From contig JBDKRC010000009.1 in the NCBI GenBank assembly GCA_039683575.1, positions 1 to 19,424 of the forward strand: a DNA stretch of 19,424 nucleotides. The letters are read 5' to 3'. The position numbers and the translations under genes were made by a program. Positions 3,732 through 19,298 of the stretch are shown in pieces (the stretch's first letter is position 1; each line of letters opens with the position of its first letter). This DNA comes from Armatimonadia bacterium. Its GTDB lineage: Bacteria > Armatimonadota > Zipacnadia > Zipacnadales > UBA11051. The notes below the pieces were generated by a model. It was given only the letters and a program-made list of their open reading frames with translations, did no database searches and was not told where the DNA came from.

Positions 3732-3766
3732 TGAGCAGGTTATCCTTGTGGGGCGAATCGCTGGGA

Positions 3767-5131
3767 CTAGGCTGCCGGCACACTAACCGTGCCGCGGGCA
3801 CGATCCCTTGCTTCCACCGCTTCGCGCATGACCACGATGCCAACAGAAGCGAGCACCGGGAACATGGGCCCGGTGAGCCACGGGTAAAGAACCACAGACC
3901 CCAGCGTGAAGAACACGAAGAAGAGTATACACAGAAGAGGGAAATTGTTGTATGGGTCTGTTTTGGCCGTCGCGCGCATGTACCTGCGGGCGCATCTGAT
4001 GCTGGTGATCCAGACCCCCAAAAAGCAGAAGATGGCAGGGATGCCATAGCGCCCCAGCACCGCCGTATAGGCGCTGTGGTAGCCGATGGTAGTCTGCAGA
4101 TAGTCGCGCGGATTGGCCGCCGTGCCGTACCCGAACCAGCGGGCGTGGGCGATGGTGGTCTTGGCCTGTTCATCGCGGTAGGCGGTAACTCCGCCAGCCT
4201 CGTCCTCTGCCCGGCGCTCCTGCTTGGTCGCGATGGCCTCCCAGATGCGGAAGGCCTCACCGTAGCTTGACAGAGACGCCGCAACGCCCAACGCTATCAT
4301 AATCGCCACGAACGCGGCATACACGCGCATGAGGCGCGCTGCACGCTTGTGGTTGAGAACTGTGAAGATGATGATCAGGAGCAGGGAAGTGGCAACGGAC
4401 GTGCGGTAGGCTGTGGTCACCCCGACCATCAGCGCCAGGAACAGCATCAGCGAGAGCGCGATGACGTACCGCTGGCCCGCTTTGCCATACGACAGTGCGC
4501 CGCCCAGCAGCCCTAGCGTTGCTGCGACCATGAGGGAGGAGACCTCGCCCAGATGGATTGTGTAGGCGAGAATGCCCTGGTATGGCTGGCCGAAGTGCGG
4601 GGGAGCCAGCACGAGCGACATCAGGATCAGCGTAAGTGCCGACAGCAACACGCTGCAGGCCGCAATGAAGCTTCCTCGACGCCCGAACAGCAGCGGCAAT
4701 ATGTTGAAGAAGATCACCGGCACCCCAACGAGGTAGAAAATCGCCGGTGCAATGCCCGCGCCATGCAGCAGACAAGAGGCCAGGGCGCACAGGGCGAACA
4801 GGACCCAAACCACTGCCGGCAGGCTGGACTTGCGGGGGAAGCCAGCGGTGCGCAGCCATGCCAGAGACAGCAGGCCGACCAGCGCGGCCCCCAGGAGCGC
4901 CAGCCACGGCAGCCAGTGGATGCTGCCGGTCGGAAACTCAGACACGTACAAGTAATGGGCCGTGATCGTCGTGGAGAAGAGCAGGATCAGCAGGGCCTCG
5001 CGCCGCACCGCGCGCTTGGGCATCCGGAACACCTTGCGGGGCCGGACGACTGTCGGTTCGTTTACCTGCTCGGCTGCGTCTAGCGGCATTGGATAATTCC
5101 CTGTGCCCCGGCCGGGGCCGACTTCAGACAC
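3767..5131 (-). CDS. Wzy polymerase / O-antigen ligase family membrane protein
   Basis: Ten or more hydrophobic segments, TAYRTS (T.SR-like) motif, a large loop with R...FGYG and YHSAY...GRYG (cf. HN.YL...E.G). Start is GTG 5131 or ATG 5089. Confidence 0.75.
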   Translation of the reverse strand: MSEVGPGRGTGNYPMPLDAAEQVNEPTVVRPRKVFRMPKRAVRREALLILLFSTTITAHYLYVSEFPTGSIHWLPWLALLGAALVGLLSLAWLRTAGFPRKSSLPAVVWVLFALCALASCLLHGAGIAPAIFYLVGVPVIFFNILPLLFGRRGSFIAACSVLLSALTLILMSLVLAPPHFGQPYQGILAYTIHLGEVSSLMVAATLGLLGGALSYGKAGQRYVIALSLMLFLALMVGVTTAYRTSVATSLLLIIIFTVLNHKRAARLMRVYAAFVAIMIALGVAASLSSYGEAFRIWEAIATKQERRAEDEAGGVTAYRDEQAKTTIAHARWFGYGTAANPRDYLQTTIGYHSAYTAVLGRYGIPAIFCFLGVWITSIRCARRYMRATAKTDPYNNFPLLCILFFVFFTLGSVVLYPWLTGPMFPVLASVGIVVMREAVEARDRARGTVSVPAA

Positions 5132-5154
5132 CTACACTGGCCTCGATCCCGAGA

Positions 5155-6036
5155 CTATCGCTTGATAGGGACCTCGGTAGCCATGATCTGGGCAAGTGCG
5201 GCTTCCGCGTCTGCCCGCTGCGCGGGGGTAACCGGCTGGCTCTTCATGCGTATCAGGACATCCTGCATGCCCAGCGCCCCGAAGACCGCAAAGGCTGCGC
5301 CCCATACGTACGTGCGGGCGATGTGCTTCAGCGTACCCGCGCGTCCCACCAGTTGCGGGCCATGCATCCGGACCATGCGGCGCTGGTAGTTCCGCGCGCG
5401 CAGAAACTTCCGCACCGTGATGCCGCTCTCATCCACCAGGTACAGCGGCTTGGGGATGACGGCAAAGCCGGAGGAGCCGCAAGTTCGGCACCACAGGTCC
5501 CGGTCCTCGAAACCATGCAAGTAGGTCTCATCATACGGGTTGTTCCGGAACCACTCGGCCCGGCCCATGATCGTGGCATGCATGAAAGCGGGGCGGGCGA
5601 GGGTTTGAGGCGGCTCTATCGGGGCAGCGCTGCCCTCAACGCCATGAACGCCCTTGCGAGCGTCCATCGCATACATCAAAGTCCCAACGACGTCAACTTC
5701 GGGCCGCTGGTCCAGCAGGGCTACCTGCTCTTCCAACCTGCGAGGGTGCATCAGGTCGTCGGAGTCCATCCGGGCGATGTACTTGCCTTTGGTGACGCGG
5801 TGTAGCGCGTTCAGGCGCCCCGGCAGCTTGAGATTCTGCCCATCGCTGATGACACGGACGCGCGGATCATCTATGGAGCGCGCCACCTCCAGGGAACCAT
5901 CGGTAGAGCCGTCATCCATCAGGACGAGTTCCCAATCCTGGAACGTCTGCCCGAATACCGAACGAACCGAGTTAAGTAGGGTTGCCTCACTGTTATAGAA
6001 GGGAATACCCACGGATACGGTGGGACCTGTACTCAT
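5155..6036 (-). CDS. Glycosyltransferase family 2 (paralog A), 293 aa
   Basis: VSVGIPFYNSE, DDGSTD, RMDSDD, FED. Start moved to ATG 6036 (AGGA upstream) because the longer ORF overlaps the next gene and the paralogs start at the equivalent position. Confidence 0.92.
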   Translation of the reverse strand: MSTGPTVSVGIPFYNSEATLLNSVRSVFGQTFQDWELVLMDDGSTDGSLEVARSIDDPRVRVISDGQNLKLPGRLNALHRVTKGKYIARMDSDDLMHPRRLEEQVALLDQRPEVDVVGTLMYAMDARKGVHGVEGSAAPIEPPQTLARPAFMHATIMGRAEWFRNNPYDETYLHGFEDRDLWCRTCGSSGFAVIPKPLYLVDESGITVRKFLRARNYQRRMVRMHGPQLVGRAGTLKHIARTYVWGAAFAVFGALGMQDVLIRMKSQPVTPAQRADAEAALAQIMATEVPIKR

Positions 6037-6088
6037 GGCGATACTATCCTGTGCGTTTCGTAGGTTCCCGCCCCCGGCAGCCTGTCTT

Positions 6089-7009
6089 TCAGGCTGATGC
6101 CACTGCGCCAGCGCCCTTGAGCGGGACGGGCGTGTTGCGGATCCTCTCGATCGCGGCCGCCACATCAGCCTGCTCCTCCAGCGACAGCGGACGAGAGTTG
6201 TGGCGAACCAGGCGGTCCTCGATGTGAAACAGCCCGAAGGCCCTGTACAGGCCCGCATGGACATACGTGCGCGCGTAGCGAACTATGGTGCCGGGCCACC
6301 CCACTAGCTGCGGGCCATAGTCACGCAGCAGTCGCCGCCGGAAGACCATCCGGCGCAGGAACCCTCCGACCAGGTCCGGATTCGTCTCATCCGCATGAAC
6401 CGGGTACAGGTACAGCGCCTCGTTGATCTGCGTGAACTTCGAATGGCGGCAGGTGCGACACCACAGCTCGGAATCCTGCGCTCGCGCCCACGTCTCATCA
6501 TACGGGTTGTCCAGGAACCACTGCGGCCTGCCCATGATGGTCGGATGCATCAGCGCCACCTTGCCCAGCAACTCCGAAGGATGGAACTCGCGCCCCGCAA
6601 TGCCTCCCGCGCCGACGCCATACACCTCGTACGGCGCCGACATCATGTACATCAGTGAGCCCACCACATCCACCTCTGGATGCTCGGTAAGCACCGCGAT
6701 CTCTTTCTCAAGCCGCTGCGGGTGCATCATGTCGTCCGCGTCCATGCGAGCCACGTAGACTCCACGGGCCTCGCGGTGGATCTGATTCAGACGCGCCGCC
6801 AGCTTCAGGTTATTGCCGTCGGAAATGACCCGAACCCTCGGATCATCAATCGAGCGCGCGACCTCCAGCGAGTTGTCCGTCGAACCGTCGTCCAGAAGCA
6901 CCAGTTCCCAGTCCTGCACCGTCTGAGCGAAGATGGAGCGCACCGCGTCCAGCAGCGTGCTTTCGTTGTTGTAGAAGGGAAGGCCGATTGTCACCATCGG
7001 GGAGCCCAT
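6089..7009 (-). CDS. Glycosyltransferase family 2 (paralog B), 306 aa
   Basis: VTIGLPFYNNE, DDGSTD, RMDADD, AQD. AGGAG RBS upstream. Confidence 0.92.
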   Translation of the reverse strand: MGSPMVTIGLPFYNNESTLLDAVRSIFAQTVQDWELVLLDDGSTDNSLEVARSIDDPRVRVISDGNNLKLAARLNQIHREARGVYVARMDADDMMHPQRLEKEIAVLTEHPEVDVVGSLMYMMSAPYEVYGVGAGGIAGREFHPSELLGKVALMHPTIMGRPQWFLDNPYDETWARAQDSELWCRTCRHSKFTQINEALYLYPVHADETNPDLVGGFLRRMVFRRRLLRDYGPQLVGWPGTIVRYARTYVHAGLYRAFGLFHIEDRLVRHNSRPLSLEEQADVAAAIERIRNTPVPLKGAGAVASA

Positions 7010-7058
7010 GCGACACTACTCCTGGAAACGGTATCGTGATGTTGTCCTGCAGGCCGAA

Positions 7059-7955
7059 CTATCTGGTCGGTATCTCGGTTGCCAGTAGCTTGGCCAGCCC
7101 TGCTTCCGCTTCCGCCTGCTGCTCCGCCGTCAGCGGCCGCGCCCAACGCTGCATGAGGCCGGTTGACTTCCTAATCGTGCCATACACCCGGTACGCGGCA
7201 TACTTGTAGTACATTTCCGCGAGGAGTTTCATCGTGCCAAGCTGGCCGACGAACTCCGGCCCGTACATCTTGATCAGGCGGCGGCGGAAGCCCAAGGCCC
7301 TGGCGCGCTTGGCCATCACATTCTCATCGGTGACCTCTACATAGTAGAGCGGCTCCTCAATCTGCGCGAACTTCGAGGTCCGGCACGTGCGGCACCAGAG
7401 CTCAGAGTCGATGAACCGCGCCCACGTCTCGTCGTACGGGTTCTGGCGGAACCACTCGGCCTTGCCGGTCGCCGTCCCATGAATGACAATCTGCGGCCCC
7501 AGCGTCTCGGCCGGCTTGAAGTCGCGGGTCGCCAGCACCGCCAGCGACCCAGTGCTGATCCCGTAGATGCGGTACTGGCTGTCGATCATGTACATCTGCG
7601 TCCCGACCACATCAACCTCAGGTCGCGCTTCGAGCAGTTCAATCTGCCGCTTCAGCCTGTCCGGATGCATCAGATCATCAGCGTCGAGGACCGCGATGTA
7701 CTTCCCGCGTGCTTCCCGGGTGATCTGGTTCCGCCTCGCTGCCACTTTGAGGTTGCGCCCGTCGCTGATGACCCGAATTCTCGGGTCCTGCACGGATTGG
7801 GCCACCTGCAGCGACCCGTCCGGCGAGCCATCATCCGCCAGGATCATCTCCCAATCCTCAAGGCTCTGCGCCAGCACCGAGCGGATGGTATTCAGCAATG
7901 TGCGTTCGTTGTTATAGAAGGGAACTGCAACTGTGACCAGGGGAGTTTCAGACAT
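7059..7955 (-). CDS. Glycosyltransferase family 2 (paralog C), 298 aa
   Basis: VTVAVPFYNNE, DDGSPD, VLDADD, FID. Start moved to ATG 7955 (GAAGGA upstream). Confidence 0.92.
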   Translation of the reverse strand: MSETPLVTVAVPFYNNERTLLNTIRSVLAQSLEDWEMILADDGSPDGSLQVAQSVQDPRIRVISDGRNLKVAARRNQITREARGKYIAVLDADDLMHPDRLKRQIELLEARPEVDVVGTQMYMIDSQYRIYGISTGSLAVLATRDFKPAETLGPQIVIHGTATGKAEWFRQNPYDETWARFIDSELWCRTCRTSKFAQIEEPLYYVEVTDENVMAKRARALGFRRRLIKMYGPEFVGQLGTMKLLAEMYYKYAAYRVYGTIRKSTGLMQRWARPLTAEQQAEAEAGLAKLLATEIPTR

Positions 7956-8020
7956 GAACTTGGTCCTTCCGGTGCTGCATGCGGCGCTGCAAATACTCAA
8001 CCTGAGACTAGGTTGCATCG

Positions 8021-9256
8021 TCAACCTGAGACTATGTCGCCAACCTCAATCTCGTAGAGCTGCCGGTGGCCCTCGTGCATCGAGTCAAAGCAGATCTTCG
8101 TGCCATCGCGGCTCCAGCGCGGGTGCAGGTCGCAGCGGATCTCGCCCTGAAGACCAGGCGGTGAGTAGAAGCCCCCAACATCAACCCGCTCACCCGTCTG
8201 CAGGTTGTACAGTATGATCGTCCGCAGGTGCCGCGCTCCCCGCGGATAAGTATCCGTGAGCAGGAACCGCCGGTCGGGCGAATAGGTGCAATGCCCGTCA
8301 CAGTCCAGCAGCCCCTCCCCTACTACCTCGACCTCGCGGCTCTGGTCCGTGAACAGGAAGTAACGGTTCCCCACCCCACGCTGTCGTGCCCAGGCCAACA
8401 GGCGCCGGTCATCCAGCCAGTCAAAATGGGATGTCATGTCGTCCGGGTTCAGCATGTACACATCCGAGCCATCCGGACGCGCCGTGAACATCCGCGTGCT
8501 CTGGGCGCGGAGGGCCGCCGATATCGCCCCGCCCTTGAGCAGCCGCTTCACGCCTCGCGCCAAGCCGAGCGCGCTCATGTCGCGGTGCTGCCAGCGGTGC
8601 AAGAAGACGAAGCGGCTGTCGTCGGTCGAGAACTGCAGGTGGTTGAACCGGTGCTTCGCCTGCCCCATGTTGCTGGTGGGCTCCAGGGCAGCGATCTGCG
8701 CCACTGTGACGATCAGCTCATAGTCACCGGTTGCCAGATCCATCCGGTAGATGCCGTCGCCGGCAGGCCGCAATTCGCTCGCAAACGGGTCTGGGATACC
8801 GTTGTACCCATAGCCGGGTCGACAGTCGTGCAGTCGTGAGAAATTGAGCGTCACAGCCTGCGTGCCGTCATGGCTCACGGCATAGATCGGCAGCGGTAGC
8901 AGCCGCCGGTCACCGCTGTCCAGATCGTGGATGCAGGCGGCGTACCTGTCGCCCTCGCGCACATTATAGATGATCCTGCGCCCGTTGCCACCCGGCAGCC
9001 ACTGCAGATGGGTCCCCTGCTGCCAGTTGAAGGCCCGCGTCTCACCCACCGGCTGGAACTCGCCGTCCCCCTGCAGGTCAATGAACCCAATCCGCGCGAC
9101 ATCATCGGCAGACGGCGGACGCTCCATGAAGTCCGTTTCCAGCGCCAGTACATAACGTCCTGACTCGTCATACGGACATTTGTCGTAGTACCCAAAATAG
9201 TGATGGCCGGGCTGATGGGTGAGAGCGCGACACTCGGCTATGCACCAACTGCTCAT
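8021..9256 (-). CDS. Beta-propeller protein, TolB-like / oligogalacturonate lyase (PL22)-like, 411 aa, no signal peptide
   Basis: Repeated propeller-turn motifs (SHDG, STDD, SPDR, SRDG), HHYFGYYD N-terminus, DLHPRWSRDG..ICFDS...RQLY C-terminus. Start moved to ATG 9256 (GAGGA upstream). Confidence 0.7.
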   Translation of the reverse strand: MSSWCIAECRALTHQPGHHYFGYYDKCPYDESGRYVLALETDFMERPPSADDVARIGFIDLQGDGEFQPVGETRAFNWQQGTHLQWLPGGNGRRIIYNVREGDRYAACIHDLDSGDRRLLPLPIYAVSHDGTQAVTLNFSRLHDCRPGYGYNGIPDPFASELRPAGDGIYRMDLATGDYELIVTVAQIAALEPTSNMGQAKHRFNHLQFSTDDSRFVFLHRWQHRDMSALGLARGVKRLLKGGAISAALRAQSTRMFTARPDGSDVYMLNPDDMTSHFDWLDDRRLLAWARQRGVGNRYFLFTDQSREVEVVGEGLLDCDGHCTYSPDRRFLLTDTYPRGARHLRTIILYNLQTGERVDVGGFYSPPGLQGEIRCDLHPRWSRDGTKICFDSMHEGHRQLYEIEVGDIVSG

Positions 9257-9420
9257 CGTGAAATCCTCTGCCTGCTTCTGATCCAGCCCTTCTGGCCCTG
9301 ACTGGCGAGCCCAAGAGCAAAGATGCCCACCACTCTTTATCCTGGTGAGCGTTGCCAATGAACCCACTACACCGCCTTGGCACGCGGCACAGACTGTGCT
9401 ACCGACCACCAAACCGCCTG

Positions 9421-10875
9421 TCAATGCTCAGAGCTGGCCTGCTCCTCTTCCGCATAGTCCATGAACATACCGTGCCGGTATGCCCAGCCCAATGTCAGCA
9501 GCACCACGAGAAGCACGAAAGTCATGGCAGCGCTCTTTACCGAGGACGGCCCGGACTTCTCCTCTGGCGCAACCGCAGGGTCGAGGACCGAAAAGCTCTC
9601 GCTGCTGTTCCTCTGCACCTCTATCTCCGCCAGTTGCAGTTGCTTGGCCAATTCACCAATAGTCTCGCTCTGAATCTTCTGCGTGCGGCTGAGATTCACA
9701 TATTCCCGCGCCACCGGAGGCAAGTTCCGCAGTTGGCTCTCTGATTTGGCGATATTCTCGGCGATCTGCGTCTGTCGTGCCTTCGCTCCCGCGAGTTGCA
9801 CCTCCAGACGCGTCACATCCTCCAGTAGCCCGTCGTAAAGCGGGTTCGGCTGGCGCGTGACCTGCTGCAGAACATCGGCGCTCAGGTGCTCCAACTGCTT
9901 CTCGGTCTGGTTTATCTCTGACTGAATGACCACGACATCAGGATGCTGTGCTGACTTGCCTTCAGCCATCTGGCTGGACAGTTCGCTCTTGTACCTCGCG
10001 AGTTGACCCTCAAGCGAGACAATCATCGGGTTGCGCTGCGTCACCTGCTGCGCAATCCGGTCAGCATCCTCGTGGCGCAAGCGCTTGCGGCTCACTTCGA
10101 GGGAACTCGTCGCCTGCGCCGCCTCCTGCTTCGCCTTCGCGTATTCACTCGTTGCATCCCTGGCGGCGGCCACCAGGACGGTAGCCTTGGCTTCCGGGTC
10201 CAGAAGCAGGTACTGGCTCTGCAACTGCTGCAACTGCATTTCCGTCTCGTCAAGCTTGGCCTGGACCTCATCCACACGCTTCTGAATGAACTCCCGCGTA
10301 CTCGTTGCGCTCTTCACCTTCGTGCCGACCAGATACTCATCAAGGGCTGCCATGTAGTCGTTGGCAATCTGGGCGCACATCTGCTTGGCTTCTGCGGTCG
10401 TGAAGGGTCCGGTCTGCCCGGTCCACATCGCCAGCCTGCTCGGGCCAGCCAGCTCGACTCCGGTCTTGAGCCCGGTGCCGGCCCGCAGTGCCCGCTGCCC
10501 CACGGCCTCCACGGTGGTGGCCTTCCCCAGCCAGTCGATAGCCTTCTCGTGGCTTACGCCCAGCCGTTCCTCCAGCTTTGTCTTGCGCAGGACAACAGCC
10601 CTGATGCGCCGGCTCTGAACCACCTGCTGCATCCGCGTCAGGGAGTTGTCATCGCTGGTGAGACCCGCCAGGGCCAGCCCGCCGATAGTACCAGAGGGCA
10701 GCCTGGCTTCACTGGTGACGATAACGGTACTGGCTGCGTAGGTGCGGGGCACGAAGACATACACGTAGATGCCAACGGCTGCTGATCCCAAAAAGGCCAA
10801 CAAGACAATCCGCGGCCACGTCAGCAGATCCAGGAGAGACATCAACGGTCCAGTCGTTGGTTCTGATTTGTGCAT
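9421..10875 (-). CDS. Polysaccharide co-polymerase / chain-length determinant (GumC/Wzc periplasmic-type) without a tyrosine-kinase domain
   Basis: N-terminal TM followed by PRTYAAST, long coiled coil, HPDVV, then VLDPAVAPEEKSGP before a second TM and a short tail. Start ATG 10875 (AAAGGA upstream); alternative ATG 10842. Confidence 0.85.
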   Translation of the reverse strand: MHKSEPTTGPLMSLLDLLTWPRIVLLAFLGSAAVGIYVYVFVPRTYAASTVIVTSEARLPSGTIGGLALAGLTSDDNSLTRMQQVVQSRRIRAVVLRKTKLEERLGVSHEKAIDWLGKATTVEAVGQRALRAGTGLKTGVELAGPSRLAMWTGQTGPFTTAEAKQMCAQIANDYMAALDEYLVGTKVKSATSTREFIQKRVDEVQAKLDETEMQLQQLQSQYLLLDPEAKATVLVAAARDATSEYAKAKQEAAQATSSLEVSRKRLRHEDADRIAQQVTQRNPMIVSLEGQLARYKSELSSQMAEGKSAQHPDVVVIQSEINQTEKQLEHLSADVLQQVTRQPNPLYDGLLEDVTRLEVQLAGAKARQTQIAENIAKSESQLRNLPPVAREYVNLSRTQKIQSETIGELAKQLQLAEIEVQRNSSESFSVLDPAVAPEEKSGPSSVKSAAMTFVLLVVLLTLGWAYRHGMFMDYAEEEQASSEH

Positions 10876-11125
10876 CCAGTGGAAATCCTTTCCAACGATC
10901 CCGTACGGTTCATTCCCCGCCGCCCCATCTTCAGCCAAACACCCGCCGCAGATGGCGTGTTCCCCCCGTCTGGGCCCTGCCAACGTGGCTCCCTAACGCC
11001 GAAACAGCCTGCGCTCGCACCAGCACGCGCCAAAATGCCCTGTAGCGGGGTCATCCTCTGCGCCTTCGCGCACCACTTCCCCACTCAATTCGCCTTACCG
11101 ACGCCGATATCCTTGTTTGCGGGGA

Positions 11126-12058
11126 TCAAGAAGGGAGAAAAGAACGAACAGTCTGCTCGAGGCCTTCATCCATCTGGACCGCCGGCTCGTAACCGAGAGC
11201 GGCTCGAGCCGCCGAGATGTCCGCCAGTGAATGCTTCACATCGCCGACGCGAGCCGCTTCATAGACCGGCTCGATGTTCGTCCCGATGAGATCATTCAGT
11301 TTCCGCACCAACTGGTTGAGCGACATGCTGTCGCCACAGGCGATGTTGAAGGCCTGACCGGCGCCGTCGGTGGCCAGGGCAGCCTTGACGTTCGCCTGCA
11401 CCACGTTGTCCACATAGGTAAAGTCACGGCTCTGTTCACCGTCACCGTAGATGACAGGTCGTTCGCCCGCGAGTATGCGGGTGCAGAAGATGGGGATGAC
11501 GGCGGCATACTGAGACTTGGGGTCCTGGCGGGGGCCAAAAACGTTGAAGTAGCGCAGGCTCACCGTTTCCAGGCCATATGAGCCATAGAAAGCGCTGGCG
11601 TAGGCTTCCTGCGTCAGCTTGGTGGCGGCATACGGCGAGATCGGCATGGGCCGCATCGTCTCGACCTTGGGAAGCTGCGGGTTGCTGCCATACACCGACG
11701 AGGACGAGGCCTGCACCACTCGCTTCACCCCGGCGTCCTTCGCCGCGATCATCACGTTCAGCGTGCCGGTGCAGTTTGCCTCGTGGCTGCTGATCGGATC
11801 AGCCACTGACCGCGGAACCGACGGGATGGCCCCCTGGTGCAAAACGTAGTCCACGCCCTCAAACACGGGGCGGAGGGCTTCGAGATCACGGATGCTCAAC
11901 TCGAAGAACTTGACCTGATCCCGCACCTCGGCGATGTTCTCCAGCTTCCCCGTTGACAGGTTGTCGACTATCCGAACTTCGTCGCCACGCTTCAAAAGGT
12001 GCCTGACAATGTGGCTGCCTATGAAGCCTGCGCCACCTGTAACGAGAAAACATGCCAT
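11126..12058 (-). CDS. NAD-dependent epimerase, UDP-Glc/GlcNAc(A) 4-epimerase of WbpP/TviC type
   Basis: TGGAGFIGS, PSVPRSVADP, SSSSVYG, SPYAATK, LRYFNVFGPRQDP.SQYAAVIP, GDGEQSRDFTYV, GDVKHSLADIS. Confidence 0.92.
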   Translation of the reverse strand: MACFLVTGGAGFIGSHIVRHLLKRGDEVRIVDNLSTGKLENIAEVRDQVKFFELSIRDLEALRPVFEGVDYVLHQGAIPSVPRSVADPISSHEANCTGTLNVMIAAKDAGVKRVVQASSSSVYGSNPQLPKVETMRPMPISPYAATKLTQEAYASAFYGSYGLETVSLRYFNVFGPRQDPKSQYAAVIPIFCTRILAGERPVIYGDGEQSRDFTYVDNVVQANVKAALATDGAGQAFNIACGDSMSLNQLVRKLNDLIGTNIEPVYEAARVGDVKHSLADISAARAALGYEPAVQMDEGLEQTVRSFLPS

Positions 12059-12078
12059 TGAATCTTGCTCCAGTCTCG

Positions 12079-13752
12079 TCAGTCTGCGGGCGTATCGGAG
12101 AGACCCAATACACCGGCCCCGTTCACCGGGAAGTACATCCGCACCCGCAAGCCCTCGGCAGCGTACCGCGCCATGACCTGCTCGCAGTGCTTCTGCTCAA
12201 CAATCACCATGGCACAGCCGCCCAGGCCTGCCCCCGCCATCTGTGCCCCGAGCACCCCCGGCAAGCCGTATGCCAGGTCTACTATCCGGTCAATCTCGGG
12301 TACGCTGCACTCATAGCGCCCCGGTTGCCACTCCAATTGACAAGCCTCACGCACCGCCGGATCGTCCGATTGCAGGCCCTCGATCAACTCCCGCAGATGC
12401 TCGTCCGTCACCTGGTAATCCCACGGCAGCGGGTTCAGCGCCTCATCATGGGCAATCACGCGGTCGCCGTCGTGGGAGGCCCTGTAAAGCCGGTGCAGCG
12501 CGTCCACATCATGCCGCCTGAGGCAATCCGCAAATAGCCGGGACCGCCGGATCTCGGCCAGGCCGTATAGCAGCACATTGCGCACATAAAGCGGCTGCCC
12601 TACCGGCAGGTCATTGGCAAGAAGGTCCGCGATGCGCTTGTGGTCGAGCGTTGAGAGCCGGTCGAAGTACGTCGGGATGTCGTCGTAGGCAACCTGCTGC
12701 GGGATCTGCATCAGCATCCCATACAGGTCTCCGAGCGAAATGCGCAGCTTGTCGGTGTTGATGTCCCGCAGGTACTCAATGCGGTCAGCGTACTGCGGGA
12801 ACGTCAGCTTGAACAGTGACTGGGCGACGACGTAGGCCAGGACGCGGGCATTGAACTCCGCCCGCGCGCCCTGCATCTTCTTGGCCTCGATGCCAGAGTT
12901 GACGATGAGAATGCGGTAATCCGAGGGGAACGGCATGAACTGCTTGATGTGGAAGGGGAAGAAACTCATGTCGGCGACTTCCCCACGGCGCCCGAACCTG
13001 ATGGCTCCATGGTCGCCGCTACCGCCCCGCGTGCCGACGAACCATTCAGCTTCCCCGCAAAGGTCAACCAGCATCTGCGGCGCCACGGGCAGGTCATTGA
13101 CCTTGATACACGCCTTGGCGGTCGCCACGACCAGTGCCGATGAGGAGCTAAGGCCGCTGCCGATCGGCACGCTGCTATGCACCGTCATCCGCATGCCGCG
13201 AAGCTGCCGGTTCGGGAACGTGTTTTGCAACCGCAGAGTGCTCGCCTTGATGTAGTTCTCCCAGTCCCCGTCGTTGACCAGCGCGATGGTCTTGGGGCTG
13301 TTGATGCAGGTGAACCAGTCCTGAAGCTCAAGATTCCTGACCAGTTCTCCGATCGAGAACTCATTGTCCGCAAACCGGTCTGGCAGCGAGTTGGACAGTT
13401 CCACCACGTCATCCTGGCGCGGAGAGACGACGGCGATGCACTCGTCGTTGATCGCGATGACGTTGATGTCGCCACCACGGTGATCAACGTGCCGCCCCAT
13501 GAGGTTTATCCGCCCAGGCGACCGAACGATGAAGACGAGGTCCGTGCCCCCATAGTGTTGCTGATAGTGCTCGAGGGATATCAGGTACTGCTCGCGCTTT
13601 TCCTCCCTGATGAGGCTGTCCTGTCCGTATGTTACCTCAAGAAAGCGCTCCACCCTCGGATCGCGGTCGGAAAACAGCGCCGTCCACTCTGCAGCCGTAA
13701 ACAGCGACACTTCCGCCGTATCAGTTGTCTCCCACTTCGCTGTAGTACTCAC
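12079..13752 (-). CDS. GHMP-family sugar-1-kinase (galactokinase-like; possibly a uronokinase)
   Basis: SPGRINLMGRHVDH, PIGSGLSSS (GHMP ATP loop), YECSVPEID, GAQMAGAGLGGC. The GTG start overlaps the upstream gene by 32 nt. Confidence 0.85.
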   Translation of the reverse strand: MSTTAKWETTDTAEVSLFTAAEWTALFSDRDPRVERFLEVTYGQDSLIREEKREQYLISLEHYQQHYGGTDLVFIVRSPGRINLMGRHVDHRGGDINVIAINDECIAVVSPRQDDVVELSNSLPDRFADNEFSIGELVRNLELQDWFTCINSPKTIALVNDGDWENYIKASTLRLQNTFPNRQLRGMRMTVHSSVPIGSGLSSSSALVVATAKACIKVNDLPVAPQMLVDLCGEAEWFVGTRGGSGDHGAIRFGRRGEVADMSFFPFHIKQFMPFPSDYRILIVNSGIEAKKMQGARAEFNARVLAYVVAQSLFKLTFPQYADRIEYLRDINTDKLRISLGDLYGMLMQIPQQVAYDDIPTYFDRLSTLDHKRIADLLANDLPVGQPLYVRNVLLYGLAEIRRSRLFADCLRRHDVDALHRLYRASHDGDRVIAHDEALNPLPWDYQVTDEHLRELIEGLQSDDPAVREACQLEWQPGRYECSVPEIDRIVDLAYGLPGVLGAQMAGAGLGGCAMVIVEQKHCEQVMARYAAEGLRVRMYFPVNGAGVLGLSDTPAD

Positions 13753-14758
13753 GTATCTTCTGCAACTCCTCCAGGGTGTTGAACCCCATGCATGCCTGCG
13801 GATCGCTCAACTTCACTGTCTTCAGAGAGAAGCGTAGCCGACCATCGTCGCCACATTCCGAAGCCAGATACTTGATGCAATCCGTCAGGTATTCCTCGCC
13901 CTGTGCATTGGCCGGCTGCAAAGTCTCCAGTGCCTCGTACAGCGCTGTACTCTTGAAAATGTAGACCGAAAGATTGACCTCGTCGGTAGCCGCTTCCACC
14001 TCATGCGCCCGGATCGTTTGCTGGCGCCCCTCGCGGTGGACGGTGATCTCCGCTTTGGGCAAAAGCCCCTCCACTTCAGACGCAAGAAGAAGAGGCTCTA
14101 CCTCACTGCTGTCAGAGATCCGCTGCAAGATCCCCGGACAAGCCTTCTGCAGCTTGCTTTCCTTCGGGAAATGCGCCCTCATGCGCTCCAGAACCTGAAC
14201 CGTGGGCACGCTTGACCCCGAGGCCGCCATCTCCTCCAACTCCACCAGCAGCCTCGACAGCGCGATCTCCGCCGTCTCCACTATTGCTATGGGCTCGCCG
14301 CGCTCATTTTTGAGCACTCGGCCCGAACCCGGATTGTCCTGCTTGTCCCCGGTAAGAAACACCAAATCGGCGTTTTCTTCCCGCATCGCGGAAATAAGGT
14401 CGCTCACAACCTCGCCCCGCAGCACCTTATCGCCCGCCACCAGCAGCACCGCCCCCTGGTACTGCTGCTCCTGCAAAGGCTGTGCTCCGCAACGCGCCGC
14501 GTGCCCGGTCCCCTTCGGCTCGGGTTGGTAAGCAAACTCGACGTTGCTGCGCTTGCTCTCCACCTCTGCCCGCACCTGGTCCGCCAGATGCCCCACCACC
14601 ACAATATGCCTCGTCACGCCGCTCTGTTCATACACCTCCAGAGCACGGGAGATCGCCGGTACGCCCGCTATCTCGTAGCAGACCTTGTTCAGGTCGTCGG
14701 ATGGCATGCGGCTGCCACGACCTGCGGCCAGAACCACAGAGACGACTTCAGTTTCCAC
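13721..14758 (-). CDS. Sugar-1-phosphate nucleotidyltransferase, GlmU N-terminal-like, lacking the acetyltransferase beta-helix
   Basis: VVLAAGRGSRM..K, QPEPKGTGHA, AGD, GRV, IVE, EVN, NAQGEEYLTD, GFNTLEEL. Start moved to GTG 14758 (AGGAG upstream). Confidence 0.85.
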   Translation of the reverse strand: METEVVSVVLAAGRGSRMPSDDLNKVCYEIAGVPAISRALEVYEQSGVTRHIVVVGHLADQVRAEVESKRSNVEFAYQPEPKGTGHAARCGAQPLQEQQYQGAVLLVAGDKVLRGEVVSDLISAMREENADLVFLTGDKQDNPGSGRVLKNERGEPIAIVETAEIALSRLLVELEEMAASGSSVPTVQVLERMRAHFPKESKLQKACPGILQRISDSSEVEPLLLASEVEGLLPKAEITVHREGRQQTIRAHEVEAATDEVNLSVYIFKSTALYEALETLQPANAQGEEYLTDCIKYLASECGDDGRLRFSLKTVKLSDPQACMGFNTLEELQKIREYYSEVGDN

Positions 14759-14869
14759 TCGGCAGTGATCTCCTGGAGGGCATGGTACGGGAGTGCGCCA
14801 GACGGCGCCTCCGGGCAAGAGCCTGAAAGCGACTAAGGGGTGAAGAAAACCTACCCTCCCACGGCGGCA

Positions 14870-14899
14870 ATAATACCACCAGACAGACTGTAGCGTCAA
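14870..14899 (-). promoter_or_regulatory. Putative sigma70 promoter for the minus-strand polysaccharide operon
   Basis: Minus strand TTGACG (14899-14894), 18-nt spacer, TATTAT (14875-14870), preceded by TG-n (extended -10). Confidence 0.55.
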
Positions 14900-15015
14900 C
14901 TGCACACCAACGTCTGAGTATCTCTTGACACAATATACGCCCTAACCGAGCCCCCCTGCTCGCGAGGCTGTCCCGTACAATGATACTGCCGTCCTCGCCT
15001 ACAGATGCCATGATC

Positions 15016-15024
15016 TGCTATAAT
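15016..15024 (+). promoter_or_regulatory. Putative extended -10 promoter for the plus-strand SDR gene
   Basis: Perfect TGcTATAAT in a high-GC background, about 220 nt upstream of ATG 15247; no convincing -35. Confidence 0.5.
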
Positions 15025-15193
15025 CCATCCCCGCAACAACCATTCAGTCACTGCGTTGTCCAAAACACACCGAGGACAGAAAAAACCTTCGCCAACAAGA
15101 GGTCATGGTCGACACCCCGGGGAATAGCACGTGGGCGTAGTCCCCAGTGGTTGAGGGTTAGGCGTCCAGCCACACGACGTAAAGGAGACGAGA

Positions 15194-15259
15194 ATGCTTT
15201 TTGTAGTAGAAGACGTCGTACAATCAGCCCGAAAGGAGTACGTGCCATGCATGCTCTAG
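15194..15259 (+). CDS. Candidate 21-aa leader peptide (MLFVVEDVVQSARKEYVPCML)
   Basis: AAAGGAG at 15181-15187, 6 nt before ATG 15194. The ORF runs over the RBS and start of the next gene and stops at TAG 15259. Confidence 0.3.
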   Translation: MLFVVEDVVQSARKEYVPCML

Positions 15260-16248
15260 TGACCGGCGGAGCAGGCTTCATCGGCTCGCATCTGGTCCGA
15301 GAACTGCTCAAGCGCGACTACTCCGTGACCGTTGTGGACAATCTGGTCACCGGTTCGATGCGGAACATCGAGGATTTGCTTTCCGTATCCGGGTTTGATT
15401 TCGTTGAAGCCGACATCTGCCAGCGCGAACTGCTCGCGCCCCTAATGAAGAAATCCCACTACTGCTATCATCTCGCTGCGGCGGTAGGGGTCAAGCGCAT
15501 TGTAGACGAGCCCCTCGCCTCTCTCGAAGCTCTCGTCCATGGCACTTCCTCCGTACTCGAGGCCGCCAACACCTACCGGGTGCCAATCTTCCTGGCCTCG
15601 ACGTCGGAAGTCTACGGAAAGCATGGCGCCCACTCCCTCGCCGAGGAATGTGCCAGCGTCATCGGCCCCGTCATGAAGTGGCGCTGGCTATACGCCTGCT
15701 CCAAGATGCTGGACGAGTTCTGGGCTCTCGCCTACCACCACGAGCGAAGTCTGCCGGTAATCGTCTCCCGGCTCTTCAACGTCAGCGGCCCCCGTCAGAC
15801 CGGCCGCTGGGGCATGGTTGTCCCCACCTTCGTACAACAGGCGCTCGACAACAAGCCGGTCACCGTTTACGGTGACGGCGAGCAGAGGCGCTGCTTCCTC
15901 CACGTGAGTGACTGCGTCGAGTCCATCATGCGCCTGACGACCAATCCCGACGCCGTCGGCGAGATCGTCAACATCGGCAATGCGAACGAGTTGAGCATCA
16001 ACCAGCTCGCCCAGCGCGTCATCGACCTTGTCCCCGGCACAACCTCCGAGATCACCCACATCAGCTACGAGGACGCCTACGGCCAGGGCTTCGAGGACAT
16101 GCTCCAGCGCAGGCCAGACGCCTCGCTCCTCACCGAGCTGACCGGCTTCCAGCCGCAGATGACCATAGATCAGATCATCACCGACGTCATGGACTACATC
16201 AAGAGCGGCCCTGCAGCAGCCGCGTCCGATGCCCGCCGCGCCGGTTAA
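15247..16248 (+). CDS. NAD-dependent epimerase/dehydratase, UDP-glucuronate decarboxylase (Uxs/ArnA C-terminal)-like, 333 aa
   Basis: VTGGAGFIGSHL, HLAAAVGV, ASTSEVYGK, RWLYACSK (YxxxK), RLFNVSGPRQ, GDGEQRRCF. Start moved to ATG 15247 (AAAGGAG upstream). Exact activity uncertain. Confidence 0.85.
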   Translation: MHALVTGGAGFIGSHLVRELLKRDYSVTVVDNLVTGSMRNIEDLLSVSGFDFVEADICQRELLAPLMKKSHYCYHLAAAVGVKRIVDEPLASLEALVHGTSSVLEAANTYRVPIFLASTSEVYGKHGAHSLAEECASVIGPVMKWRWLYACSKMLDEFWALAYHHERSLPVIVSRLFNVSGPRQTGRWGMVVPTFVQQALDNKPVTVYGDGEQRRCFLHVSDCVESIMRLTTNPDAVGEIVNIGNANELSINQLAQRVIDLVPGTTSEITHISYEDAYGQGFEDMLQRRPDASLLTELTGFQPQMTIDQIITDVMDYIKSGPAAAASDARRAG

Positions 16249-16456: not shown

Positions 16457-19192
16457 CTAGAAGATCAGCGCCGCCGCTGCCAGACTGACAATGTCGCGCA
16501 GGATACTGGTCGATGCGGTCTTCACACGCTTGAACATGTGCTCCGACGGCACGATCAGCACATCTCCGGCCTCAATCAGAGTGTCCTTGGTCGCCGGCGA
16601 AGCCGAGCCGTTGGCACGCACCACAATCATCCGGCCAAGATTGGCGTCAGGCGTAGGCCCGCCAGCCTCTTTGACCAGGTCCAGAGGGTATCCGGCCATG
16701 GACTGCAGAGCCCCCGGTGAGTTCACGCTGCCGATAACCGTGACGAAATCAACCTTCTTCGGAATCCGCACGATGTCGCCGCGATGCAGCTCCAGGTTGC
16801 CCTCCCGCCCCTTTGACGCCATGAGCTTCGCGCCATCAATCGGCACCGCGTTGATCCACTGCCCGACGCTCAGCATCCGCGGCGGCGTCACCAGCACCGC
16901 GCCATCCTGGGTTCCCAGGAGCTTGGAGACCTGCCGGCCAACCTGCTGGCCCATTATGTCCTGCTGCTGCGAGGTGGACAGCACCGATCCCGACGCGCCG
17001 GGAACTTCCCGGTTCAACATCGCCAGGACCTGATTCAGATCCGCCATCCGGTCCTTCGACACCAATTCGGTCCTGACGCGGTAGACGACAATCCCCTTCG
17101 GGTTGGCATCTTCCATCAGCCCGTCAGCACGCTGGATCAGGTCGTAGACGGTATCTCCCTCGCGCTTCCCCGGCTCTCCGAGGTTCAGCGCATAGCTTCC
17201 TGGCTTGACGACTCGGCCCTCGATAGCGGCCACCGGCGGCACCGTTGTAAAGTCAGTTGCGCCAATGACGCCCAGACGGTCGTCGTCCTTGAGCAGGATG
17301 TCAGGCTCCACGCTAACCCCTGTCGCCGTCGGCTTCACAGCCAGCAACTGGCTGCTGCTAGCGCCTGAGAAGCGCCCCGGCGTGTACTGCACCGAACTGC
17401 CCGCGTCCGGCCGCAGACCGCCCGAGGCCATGATCGCGTCGGAGGCCTTCATGCCCTCATACCGCGCATAGCTCCCCGGTGACCGCACGAACCCATCCAC
17501 ATGGACCAGGCTATCCTCAACCACGCTGCTTCTGGGCAGAACATTGAGCGTGTCGCCGCGCTGCAGGACCACATTCGCCTCAGCCACGCCTCGCGCTGCG
17601 TCCACCAGGTTCAGCGGGATGATCTGCAAGCGCTGGTCGGGCCGCACCCGCAGAAGCTCAGCGCGCTCCGTGAGGGCGCCCGGCAGCAGATCGCCAGCCA
17701 GCAGAACCAGTTCCTGAACCGTCATCTTCTCCACAAACGGGTACTCGCCCGGCTTGCGGACCTGGCCTGTGATGCTGACCACTGCCGAACTCAGCACCTC
17801 ATCCTTCAGATAGACCGTGACGATGTCCCGCGGCTGCAGAGTCCGGTCATCCTTGCCCGAAAGCGCGTCCTGCAGGTTGAACGGGATCAGTTCATACTCA
17901 AACTTATCGTTGAGCCGCTGGATCGTCGCATGCTGGATGTGCGCCTTGTCCGTCGGCCCCTGGGCAAGCTCCACCAGCTTGCGCACCGTCAGGCCGGGCG
18001 TCACCTGGTACACCCCGGGCCTCCGTACTGGCCCGCGCAGCTCAACCGTATTCGCCAGATCTTCCACCAGCGTAGCCACATTCACCAGATCGCCGTCGGC
18101 CAGGGCCAGCTTGCCCCGCTCCGCCGACGTGCTCGCATCCGCCTGCAGCATCAGGTTCCACATCCGCTGCTGGTCCGGTCGCCAGATCTCCACCGACTTG
18201 GCATACGCATCGCGCCTGAACCCCGAGGCCATGTCAATCGCGTCCTGCAGGGTCGCGCCGTCCAGCAGCTCATACCGCGCCGGACGCCGCACTGCCCCGG
18301 CCACGCCGATCTCGATCCCGGCCGGCGGCACAAAGACCGTATCCCCCGCCTGCAGCAGCGTATCGGCATCACGCTTGCCGTACATCAGGAATTGATACAG
18401 GTCCACGACACGATCCTGCTGCCCATTGCGCAGCAGCCGAATCTTGCGGTATGACCCCGTATCCGACGGCCCACCGGCAGCGTATAGCGCCGCAAACACC
18501 GTAGCATTCCCCGGAAGCGTGAACTTCCCGGGCTGCATCACATCGCCAATCACGTATGCATCGGTCACACGCGGCCGCACCAACTCCAGCACGATCCGCG
18601 GCTGTGCATAGAACTTCGTGGCTTGCGTAGCGATCAGGTCCTGAACCTCGGCCAGCGTCTTGCCTGAGACTGTGACCTTCCCGAGCACCGGCAGCGTAAT
18701 ATACCCATCGGCGGCCACGAGGGCCTCGACGGTGGCATGCTGCCGGTTCTGGCTCCAGATCTCAACATGCAGCCGGTCCGCCGGCCCGATCAGGTAATCT
18801 GGGGAGACTGGAATATTGGCCAGCGGGCTGCCAAGCGGCTCGCGCACGTCCTGCGGCTGTTCGGTCGGCATCGGTATGATCCGGTTGCCCGCGAACACCT
18901 CCGCGCCGAACCGGACCAGACCCGTGTACAGCGCCGCCGCGCTGGCCGGTGTAGCCGCCGCCTGCGGAGGTGCCTGCGTCTGGGCTTCCGGCGGCTGCAC
19001 CGTCGGCGCGCCCAGCTCCGGAGTCGGATTCGGCACCGGGATCAAGTTGACGCCATTGTCAGGCCCAATGACCTTGCCGGCGGGCGGCTGAGCAGGCGGC
19101 GCGGGCGCTGTCTGAGACAGAGCCACCACCGGAATGAGCGCGAGCAGCAGGATCATTACGCGGCCAAAAGCCGGCCCGTTAGCACGAACCAT
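16457..19192 (-). CDS. Polysaccharide export protein with Poly_export domain and about 7 SLBB repeats (long OPX, KpsD/OtnA-like), 911 aa
   Basis: Signal-like N-terminus without lipobox Cys; DYLIGPADRL...DGYITLPVLG..GKT; seven V.G.V..PG-type repeats; C-terminal amphipathic helix. Start ATG 19192 (GGAGG upstream). Confidence 0.92.
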   Translation of the reverse strand: MVRANGPAFGRVMILLLALIPVVALSQTAPAPPAQPPAGKVIGPDNGVNLIPVPNPTPELGAPTVQPPEAQTQAPPQAAATPASAAALYTGLVRFGAEVFAGNRIIPMPTEQPQDVREPLGSPLANIPVSPDYLIGPADRLHVEIWSQNRQHATVEALVAADGYITLPVLGKVTVSGKTLAEVQDLIATQATKFYAQPRIVLELVRPRVTDAYVIGDVMQPGKFTLPGNATVFAALYAAGGPSDTGSYRKIRLLRNGQQDRVVDLYQFLMYGKRDADTLLQAGDTVFVPPAGIEIGVAGAVRRPARYELLDGATLQDAIDMASGFRRDAYAKSVEIWRPDQQRMWNLMLQADASTSAERGKLALADGDLVNVATLVEDLANTVELRGPVRRPGVYQVTPGLTVRKLVELAQGPTDKAHIQHATIQRLNDKFEYELIPFNLQDALSGKDDRTLQPRDIVTVYLKDEVLSSAVVSITGQVRKPGEYPFVEKMTVQELVLLAGDLLPGALTERAELLRVRPDQRLQIIPLNLVDAARGVAEANVVLQRGDTLNVLPRSSVVEDSLVHVDGFVRSPGSYARYEGMKASDAIMASGGLRPDAGSSVQYTPGRFSGASSSQLLAVKPTATGVSVEPDILLKDDDRLGVIGATDFTTVPPVAAIEGRVVKPGSYALNLGEPGKREGDTVYDLIQRADGLMEDANPKGIVVYRVRTELVSKDRMADLNQVLAMLNREVPGASGSVLSTSQQQDIMGQQVGRQVSKLLGTQDGAVLVTPPRMLSVGQWINAVPIDGAKLMASKGREGNLELHRGDIVRIPKKVDFVTVIGSVNSPGALQSMAGYPLDLVKEAGGPTPDANLGRMIVVRANGSASPATKDTLIEAGDVLIVPSEHMFKRVKTASTSILRDIVSLAAAALIF

Positions 19193-19298
19193 TGACAATA
19201 CCTCCAACGGCTATGGCCCCAAGCGCGGGGCTCTTCATCAACAATAACACCACAGTGTAGCGTAAATTCGCTTTCGACACCACAGACACCTTTTCGCC

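Follow-up and report, generated by a model that had tools for sequence, protein, structure and literature searches.

The 19,424-nucleotide stretch of DNA analyzed here (hereafter the window; contig JBDKRC010000009.1 of the Armatimonadia bacterium assembly GCA_039683575.1) carries an exopolysaccharide gene cluster, in which the gene located at 12079..13752 on the minus strand encodes a kinase of the galactokinase (GalK) type, P0001. P0001 represents the kinase half of a widespread two-step enzyme, which would convert a free, most probably acidic sugar to its UDP-form for the synthesis of a slime polysaccharide. That P0001 is an anomeric sugar kinase can be predicted firmly; equally firm are the predictions that this kinase and its GlmU-like partner, a nucleotidyltransferase (NTase) encoded by the adjacent gene, supply polysaccharide synthesis with a nucleotide sugar made from a free one, and that the sugar is not galactose. 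The nucleotide sugar made by the pair is very probably a UDP-sugar. An acid sugar as the substrate is overall plausible, and a plain hexuronic acid, D-galacturonic acid (GalA) in the first place, is proposed here with a probability of roughly 0.4. The kinase gene and its two diagnostic elements are as follows:

12079..13752, minus strand: predicted GalK-type GHMP anomeric sugar kinase P0001 (557 aa; PF10509, PF00288 and PF08544), the stand-alone kinase half of an NTase-kinase fusion family
13471..13518, minus strand: sugar-binding signature PGRINLMGRHVDHRGG, aa 79-94 of P0001, conserved in the family
13009..13035, minus strand: catalytic loop GTRGGSGDH, aa 240-248 of P0001, located by alignments to GALK2 and to the genome's own GalK

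The coding sequence of P0001 starts with GTG at 13752. A Pfam search recognized the galactose-binding signature of galactokinases (PF10509) at aa 62-111 of the protein (E 9.4e-14), followed C-terminally by GHMP_kinases_N (PF00288, 1.8e-14) and GHMP_kinases_C (PF08544, 7.4e-09); both GHMP domains, the PxGSGLSSSA phosphate-binding motif and the fold assign the enzyme to the GHMP superfamily. The AlphaFold2 model (mean pLDDT 93.5) displayed GALK1, GALK2 and Gal1 as its top fold matches, with a Foldseek probability of 1.00. Arg81, corresponding to the conserved Arg of the GalK motif PGRxN, was present in 120/120 homologues. A first-pass annotation of this DNA had described the sugar-binding motif of the kinase as charge-reversed in comparison with GEHxDY of galactokinases and placed it at 13471-13520. 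The motif is indeed there, at 13471..13518, and reads GRHVDH. The alignment with GalK and GALK2, which had been proposed as a check, matched Arg87 to the signature Glu and His91 to the Tyr of GEHxDY (phmmer against human GALK2, human GALK1 and yeast Gal1), the two residues which contact the sugar in GalK; neither of the two is thus found in P0001, and Asp90 of the signature is kept. The same register was obtained with the galactokinase P0123 of the same genome, which reads GEHTDY and GVRCGIMDQ in the respective regions. The other observation of the first-pass annotation, GGSGDH instead of CGxMDQ in the region of the catalytic Asp, was also reproduced: GTRGGSGDH of P0001 aligned to GTEGGGMDQ of GALK2 (phmmer), so that Asp247 occupies the position of the catalytic base, the next residue is His248 where GalK has Gln, and small residues precede Asp247 where GalK has Cys/Ile/Met.

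These features extend over the family. In the alignment A2, comprising 121 rows of the best database homologues of P0001, position 87 is occupied by Arg in 106/120 and by Ser in 14/120 sequences (one gap), and by Asp or Glu in 0/120; His91 is kept in 119/120, Asp247 in 121/121 and His248 in 119/121. The motif pattern was found, besides, in 69 of the 72 genomic copies examined, originating from many phyla, with Arg in 65 and Ser in 4 of them. Judging from these alignments, the motif is a family signature and not a product of chance, and it is the absence of an acidic residue at position 87 that is conserved, not the presence of a basic one. A hint of expression comes from metatranscriptomic contigs that span 13241..13682, including the motif, with a single difference, DNA carry-over being possible; contigs of the same RNA library also span parts of the kinase gene and of the downstream epimerase gene described below.

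The suspicion, expressed in the first-pass annotation, that an automatic 'galactokinase' label would be wrong proved well founded. P0001 scored 129.8 bits against the NCBIfam galactokinase model TIGR00131, below its cut-off of 226.65, and 62.7-126.4 bits against four other galactokinase equivalogs (PRK), whose cut-offs are 385-509. A true galactokinase, P0123, is encoded elsewhere in the genome of the window (G000; 6.23 Mb, 96.4% complete), on contig C207, and scored 301.9 bits against TIGR00131. The two proteins are 30% identical over 178 aa, P0001 carrying an insert of ~160 aa. They share the fold, the PGRxN motif, the GHMP ATP motifs and the catalytic Arg (120/120 in the family) and Asp (121/121) expected of a galactokinase; they differ in that P0001 lacks the signature Glu and Tyr and has an NTase instead of GalT as its partner. 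Since P0001 falls below all the cut-offs, a true GalK is present elsewhere and the family is fused to an NTase, P0001 should not be regarded as a galactokinase, and on these sequence grounds the label is wrong. A third GalK-like kinase of the same genome, P0122, possesses the signature GGIADYSG (contig C245, locus L004, 1438..2787, plus strand) and, as its sequence suggests, is probably an arabinokinase-type enzyme. It is close (350 bits) to the unpublished PDB entry 9ulx, 'AbGHMP', for which a literature search turned up no paper; 9ulx was considered as a relative of the P0001 family and rejected, its place being near P0122 instead.

The relatives of P0001 are numerous and, as a rule, bifunctional in their architecture. 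At least 571 of them were recognized among the 744 motif-pattern matches listed for a collection of genomes of 185,579 species; they belong to Armatimonadota, Planctomycetota, Verrucomicrobiota, Hydrogenedentota, Chloroflexota and other phyla, a metagenome-assembled genome (MAG) of an Asgard archaeon being represented as well, and the fusion family spans more than ten phyla. Their annotations read 'galactokinase', 'N-acetylgalactosamine kinase' or 'NTP transferase', and the ESM Atlas matches were solely unnamed clusters of P0001's own family. Our literature searches found no assayed member of the kinase family and no paper on a bacterial member of it. The homologues are mostly fusions of 860-931 aa: among the aligned family members 107/121 are 713-931 aa long, most of them with an NTP-transferase domain recorded N-terminal to the kinase, and about 60 of the 72 genomic copies are fused, the kinase part within the family amounting to 520-570 aa. 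In the window, the NTase and the kinase are encoded by separate genes in different frames, which overlap by 32 nt (the NTase gene ends at 13721, the kinase GTG lies at 13752). This split is real and is seen in the contigs of three studies: a 4,580-nt DNA contig of a related strain spans 11736..15300 with 40 substitutions and no gap, and short contigs of two other studies span the junction at 13689..13839 and 13639..13909, both gap-free. In a quick tree with SH-aLRT support, the stand-alone kinases formed two separate groups within the fused background, and for this reason the fission is supposed to have occurred at least twice. Besides the split gene, the genome of the window harbors another copy of the family in the fused form (motif GRHTDHRGS, 898 aa, 46% identity; contig C248, locus L008, 8065..10761, plus strand), which is surrounded by GT1, GT2 and GT4 glycosyltransferase genes and by genes of two flippases, a FemAB-like GNAT protein and a hexapeptide acyltransferase.

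The partner of the kinase is encoded immediately upstream of it:

13721..14758, minus strand: predicted GlmU-N-domain-like sugar-1-phosphate NTase (~345 aa; NTP_transf_3 and NTP_transferase in Pfam)

Its start is a GTG at 14758 preceded by AGGAG, within an open reading frame (ORF) that stays open to 14905. All 17 of its 17 PDB matches are GlmU uridyltransferase domains, its best NCBIfam matches are GlmU models, and the LAAGxGxRM and QxxxxGTGHA motifs are kept in a protein without the acetyltransferase domain. Since all the PDB relatives are uridyltransferase domains of GlmU, the NTase is presumably specific for UTP. In comparison with GlmU, it has ~90 additional residues, which are inserted after the conserved IVE strand and before the EVN..Y motif; this insert is conserved across the fusion family. 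The kinase would thus be expected to phosphorylate a free pyranose at its anomeric C1-OH at the expense of ATP, and the NTase to combine the resulting sugar-1-phosphate with UTP, yielding a UDP-sugar for the surrounding exopolysaccharide.

The nature of this sugar was approached through three further genes of the window, two of which encode short-chain dehydrogenases/reductases (SDRs):

15247..16248, plus strand: SDR-A, predicted UXS/ArnA-type UDP-uronate decarboxylase-like SDR, divergent from the NTase gene; best PDB match human UXS1
11126..12058, minus strand: SDR-B, predicted WbpP/WbgU/TviC-type 4-epimerase, directly downstream of the kinase gene; best PDB match WbpP (1sb8)
8021..9256, minus strand: seven-bladed propeller with a PL22 oligogalacturonate-lyase-like fold, in the same operon as the kinase gene (AlphaFold2 pLDDT 92.2)

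SDR-A matched human UXS1, the UDP-glucuronate decarboxylase, with 160 bits, and T118, E120, Y147, K151, N176 and R277, to which we ascribe catalytic roles according to the UXS literature, are all identical in it. Because a decarboxylase of this type needs a UDP-uronic acid, its presence next to the kinase points to such a compound. SDR-A is syntenic with the kinase in five loci, namely the window, L050, L014, L011 and L083, the latter belonging to a Planctomycetota MAG. Three Armatimonadia loci, L050, L011 and L014, also possess the complete module of SDR-A, NTase, kinase and SDR-B, their SDRs being 68-81% identical; orthologues of SDR-B adjoin the kinase in these three loci as well as in L024 and L025, where SDR-B-like genes flank the fusion in a Clostridia MAG and in an Asgard MAG, respectively. 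As for the propeller, which has no evident signal peptide, its top Foldseek matches were the two solved PL22 oligogalacturonate lyases, 3pe7 and 3c5m (E 2e-12), with VIA Z values of 30.0-30.2 over 330-338 residues, the next propellers reaching Z <= 25. To our knowledge, lyases of the PL22 family act exclusively on uronic-acid sugars.

Profile searches with PF03721 and PF00984 gave no match (0) to the UDP-glucose/GDP-mannose dehydrogenase family in the genome of the window, nor did a search of it with a real protein of the UDP-sugar 6-dehydrogenase (Ugd) family as the query, and the dehydrogenase models matched in 11-13 of the 14 control genomes. The single sub-threshold match to PF03720 in the genome proved to be a D-2-hydroxyacid dehydrogenase and was rejected as a Ugd candidate. 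PF00984 was also without a match in G001-G003, the three genomes in which the module is shared, and in a related genome (G004). Without a gene of the Ugd family, the genome of the window yet encodes the UXS-type decarboxylase. It further contains one GH28 gene, UxaC was not found in it, and the search for MIOX gave no match either in this genome or in the controls.

Considering the UXS-like neighbor, the PL22-like fold in the operon, the absence of the 6-dehydrogenase, GH28 without UxaC and the non-acidic pocket, which is shifted toward a neutral or positive one by the replacement of Glu by Arg or Ser at position 87, of Tyr by His91 and of Gln by His248, we favor a uronic acid as the substrate, GalA being the first choice and an N-acetylated hexuronic acid the second. 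According to this proposal, imported oligogalacturonides would be cleaved to galacturonate by the cytoplasmic PL22-like lyase, the kinase and the NTase would activate it, and the 4-epimerase SDR-B and the UXS-type SDR-A would convert the product to its 4-epimer and to a pentose, the chain being oligogalacturonide -> GalA -> GalA-1-P -> UDP-GalA -> UDP-GlcA -> UDP-Xyl. The result would be a route to UDP-uronic acids in a genome without a UDP-sugar 6-dehydrogenase. That Armatimonadia devoid of any such dehydrogenase make UDP-uronic acids and UDP-pentose from scavenged sugar by the entire lyase-kinase-NTase-SDR route seems rather unlikely.

Several observations weigh against a plain uronic acid. 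The 14 Ser-bearing homologues include those of the loci L011 and L014, in which the same four-gene module is present, and in the quick tree the exchange of Arg and Ser at position 87 appeared recurrent, having arisen more than once. As Ser recurs at this position even in loci with the same module, Arg87 is not an obligatory ligand. Arg242 of the catalytic loop is not specific to the family, and since the genuine galactokinase P0123 also has Arg there, this residue is uninformative about charge. Of the first-pass suggestion that the change from Glu to Arg suits a C6 carboxylate, the acidic substrate accordingly stays plausible by context (the UXS-like and PL22-like neighbors and the missing 6-dehydrogenase), and the role of Arg as the ligand of the carboxylate is weakened. 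Furthermore, the NTase and the 4-epimerase belong to N-acetylhexosamine (HexNAc) types, as does the best PDB relative of the kinase, and all three thereby point to a 2-acetamido sugar. SDR-B in particular scored 274.6 bits to WbpP (1sb8) vs 132.3 bits to the UDP-GlcA 4-epimerase 6zl6 (identical in sequence to 6zla); its score against the NCBIfam model TviC was 254.5 bits, below the cut-off of 760.

The genomic context of the family likewise speaks against this reading or favors an N-acetylated sugar. When 509 neighbors lying within 6 kb of the genes were clustered, no cluster was encountered in more than 9 of the 72 loci; the Pfam run covered 110 of the 261 neighbors within 2.5 kb, and for the remaining loci 49 same-strand partners. 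HexNAc-related genes adjoin the fusion in several loci, encoding GH20 (L063), NAGPA (L077), PIG-L (L021), a NagA-like amidohydrolase (L071), an Aga-type PTS (L075) and FnlABC-like proteins (L024); elsewhere the neighbors are SSF transporters or unrelated genes, and in the locus L074 the fusion is immediately preceded by a Ugd-family gene. The propeller gave no match to PL22 by sequence (phmmer, profile), PL22-like propellers adjoin the kinase in 2 of the 72 loci, and their co-occurrence with it is weak, 14/44 genomes with the kinase family vs 17/107 without it, uncorrected for kinship. These counts refer to 151 sampled genomes of the phylum, of which 44 possess the kinase family and 135 possess Ugd. 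Ugd is present in 40/44 genomes with the family vs 95/107 without it, which is no complementarity, and the family as a replacement of Ugd at the scale of the phylum was rejected on this ground. In the window's own order, 10 of 12 genomes lack Ugd, and the kinase is present in 5 of those 12. Because its absence in the order is independent of the kinase, the missing Ugd is a trait of the lineage and not a case of general compensation by the family.

The HexNAc-type relatives would be accounted for if P0001 were an N-acetylhexosamine 1-kinase acting on N-acetylgalactosamine (GalNAc) or N-acetylglucosamine (GlcNAc) together with a UDP-HexNAc pyrophosphorylase and feeding the WbpP-like epimerase and the priming transferase, i.e., the GHMP-type equivalent of salvage by NahK/GlmU or GALK2/UAP1. 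GALK2 (PDB 2a2c, 2a2d) is the best solved relative of P0001 by sequence (E 1.5e-28), ranks with the best by fold (TM 0.62-0.82), and shares with it the GT-x-GG-x-x-D loop, in which the small residues before the catalytic Asp would make room for a C2 substituent. The NTase matches GlmU alone, SDR-B is nearest to WbpP/WbgU and retains the Ser at the position of the WbpP gatekeeper residue, the priming enzyme belongs to the PF00953 family, HexNAc-related neighbors occur in other phyla (the six loci named above), and many members of the family are automatically annotated as 'N-acetylgalactosamine kinase'. Nevertheless, GALK2 retains the Glu and Tyr of GEHxDY, its signature and loop reading Glu, His, Asp, Tyr and MDQ in contrast to Arg/Ser, His, Asp, His and GDH of the P0001 family, where no acidic residue stands at the first of these positions. 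Moreover, the conserved UXS-type decarboxylase neighbor is left unexplained, as is the presence of such a pair in the polysaccharide loci of a cell with the normal UDP-GlcNAc route. On balance, we consider a neutral N-acetylhexosamine an unlikely substrate.

Another anionic sugar, being both acidic and N-acetylated or otherwise substituted, would reconcile the decarboxylase and a pocket that is cationic or neutral with the GlmU-, WbpP- and GALK2-like relatives, and is about as doubtful as the preceding possibility. Candidates are GalNAcA and GlcNAcA, the uronic acids of GalNAc and GlcNAc, in which case SDR-A would act as a UDP-GlcNAcA decarboxylase yielding UDP-XylNAc; N-acetylmuramic acid (MurNAc), which would make the pair a GHMP analogue of AmgK/MurU; and a sulfo- or phospho-sugar. 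The Pfam searches that showed the absence of Ugd apply equally to a UDP-HexNAc 6-dehydrogenase, and the wide spread over phyla and the variable gene context would suit a general recycling enzyme. On the other hand, a source of free N-acetylhexosaminuronic acid is not known to us, MurNAc is a misfit with the epimerase and decarboxylase neighbors and with the two copies in polysaccharide loci of the genome, and the family is present in the MAG of an Asgard archaeon. Finally, an ordinary galactokinase or a kinase of another neutral hexose or pentose, for which the motif changes would be irrelevant to specificity, is very unlikely in spite of the GalK fold, the retained Arg81, Asp247 and Asp90 and the name 'galactokinase' given to members by some sources, as the protein stays below all five equivalog cut-offs, a bona fide GalK is encoded elsewhere in the genome, two galactose-contacting positions are changed across the family and the obligatory partner is an NTase, not the GalT of the Leloir pathway.

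If the substrate is indeed an acid sugar, plant galacturonokinase (GalAK) would be the nearest functional analogue of P0001. The residue at the signature Glu position is non-acidic in both, Arg or Ser in the 120 homologues and reportedly Ala in the plant enzyme; according to a study of 2009, the signature Glu is reportedly absent from GalAK and its restoration is said to abolish the activity. GalAK phosphorylates GalA toward the synthesis of UDP-GalA (PMC8636097), and the likeness would consist in a GHMP kinase of the GalK branch that acts on C1 of an acid sugar, the product being then made into a UDP-sugar (PMC8636097). The two differ in organization: GalAK is a stand-alone protein of ~420 aa, the product of which goes to the unrelated USP, whereas the kinase of the window's family has 520-570 aa and is fused to or coupled with a GlmU-like NTase.

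In domain order, the family resembles Fkp/FKGP, the L-fucokinase/GDP-fucose pyrophosphorylase, and GKUP, all of them combining an N-terminal nucleotidyltransferase with a C-terminal GHMP sugar-1-kinase in one polypeptide; the gene of the window, in contrast to those of Fkp, FKGP and GKUP, is split into two overlapping genes. In Fkp and GKUP both domains come from other branches, their kinases being without the GalK signature and their NTases not GlmU-like, and the NCBIfam model of Fkp, NF009948, was not among the 12 families matching P0001 at E <= 0.01, of which galactokinase models matched best. Zebrafish GKUP is a glucuronokinase fused to a putative UDP-GlcA pyrophosphorylase and acts on a uronic acid (PMC3938481).

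The remaining genes of the window complete the polysaccharide cluster:

2190..10983, minus strand: rest of the polysaccharide operon, with a Wzz-like chain-length protein, three GT2 paralogues, a Wzy-like polymerase and a priming transferase
16457..19207, minus strand: Wza-like polysaccharide export protein (Poly_export and SLBB repeats in Pfam)

The priming transferase (2190..3731, minus strand; 513 aa) belongs to PF00953, the WecA/MraY family, and is fused to a C-terminal GT4-like domain. The three GT2 paralogues stand in tandem (5155..8024, minus strand), each of ~300 aa, and the great similarity of their N-terminal halves suggests an origin by local duplication. The ORF located at 544..1971 on the plus strand encodes a protein of 475 aa, both ends of which contain Pro/Gly/Ala-rich repeats and the N-terminal part of which includes a hydrophobic segment; this protein had no Pfam or NCBIfam match. 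The propeller belongs to a very large family of 'hypothetical proteins' of ~390 aa, in which 6,188 of 8,000 scored candidates matched at E <= 0.001 and many His, Arg and Asp residues are invariant; as far as the structural model goes, it may be an unrecognised lyase family.

Taken together with the breadth of the family, knowledge of the substrate of P0001 would correct annotations across more than ten phyla and, if the kinase does act on galacturonic acid, would reveal a galacturonokinase route for the first time in bacteria and assign a function to this widespread fusion family. It could also disclose a dehydrogenase-independent bacterial route to UDP-uronic acids, and would provide a one- or two-enzyme tool for the conversion of a free sugar to the UDP-sugar.

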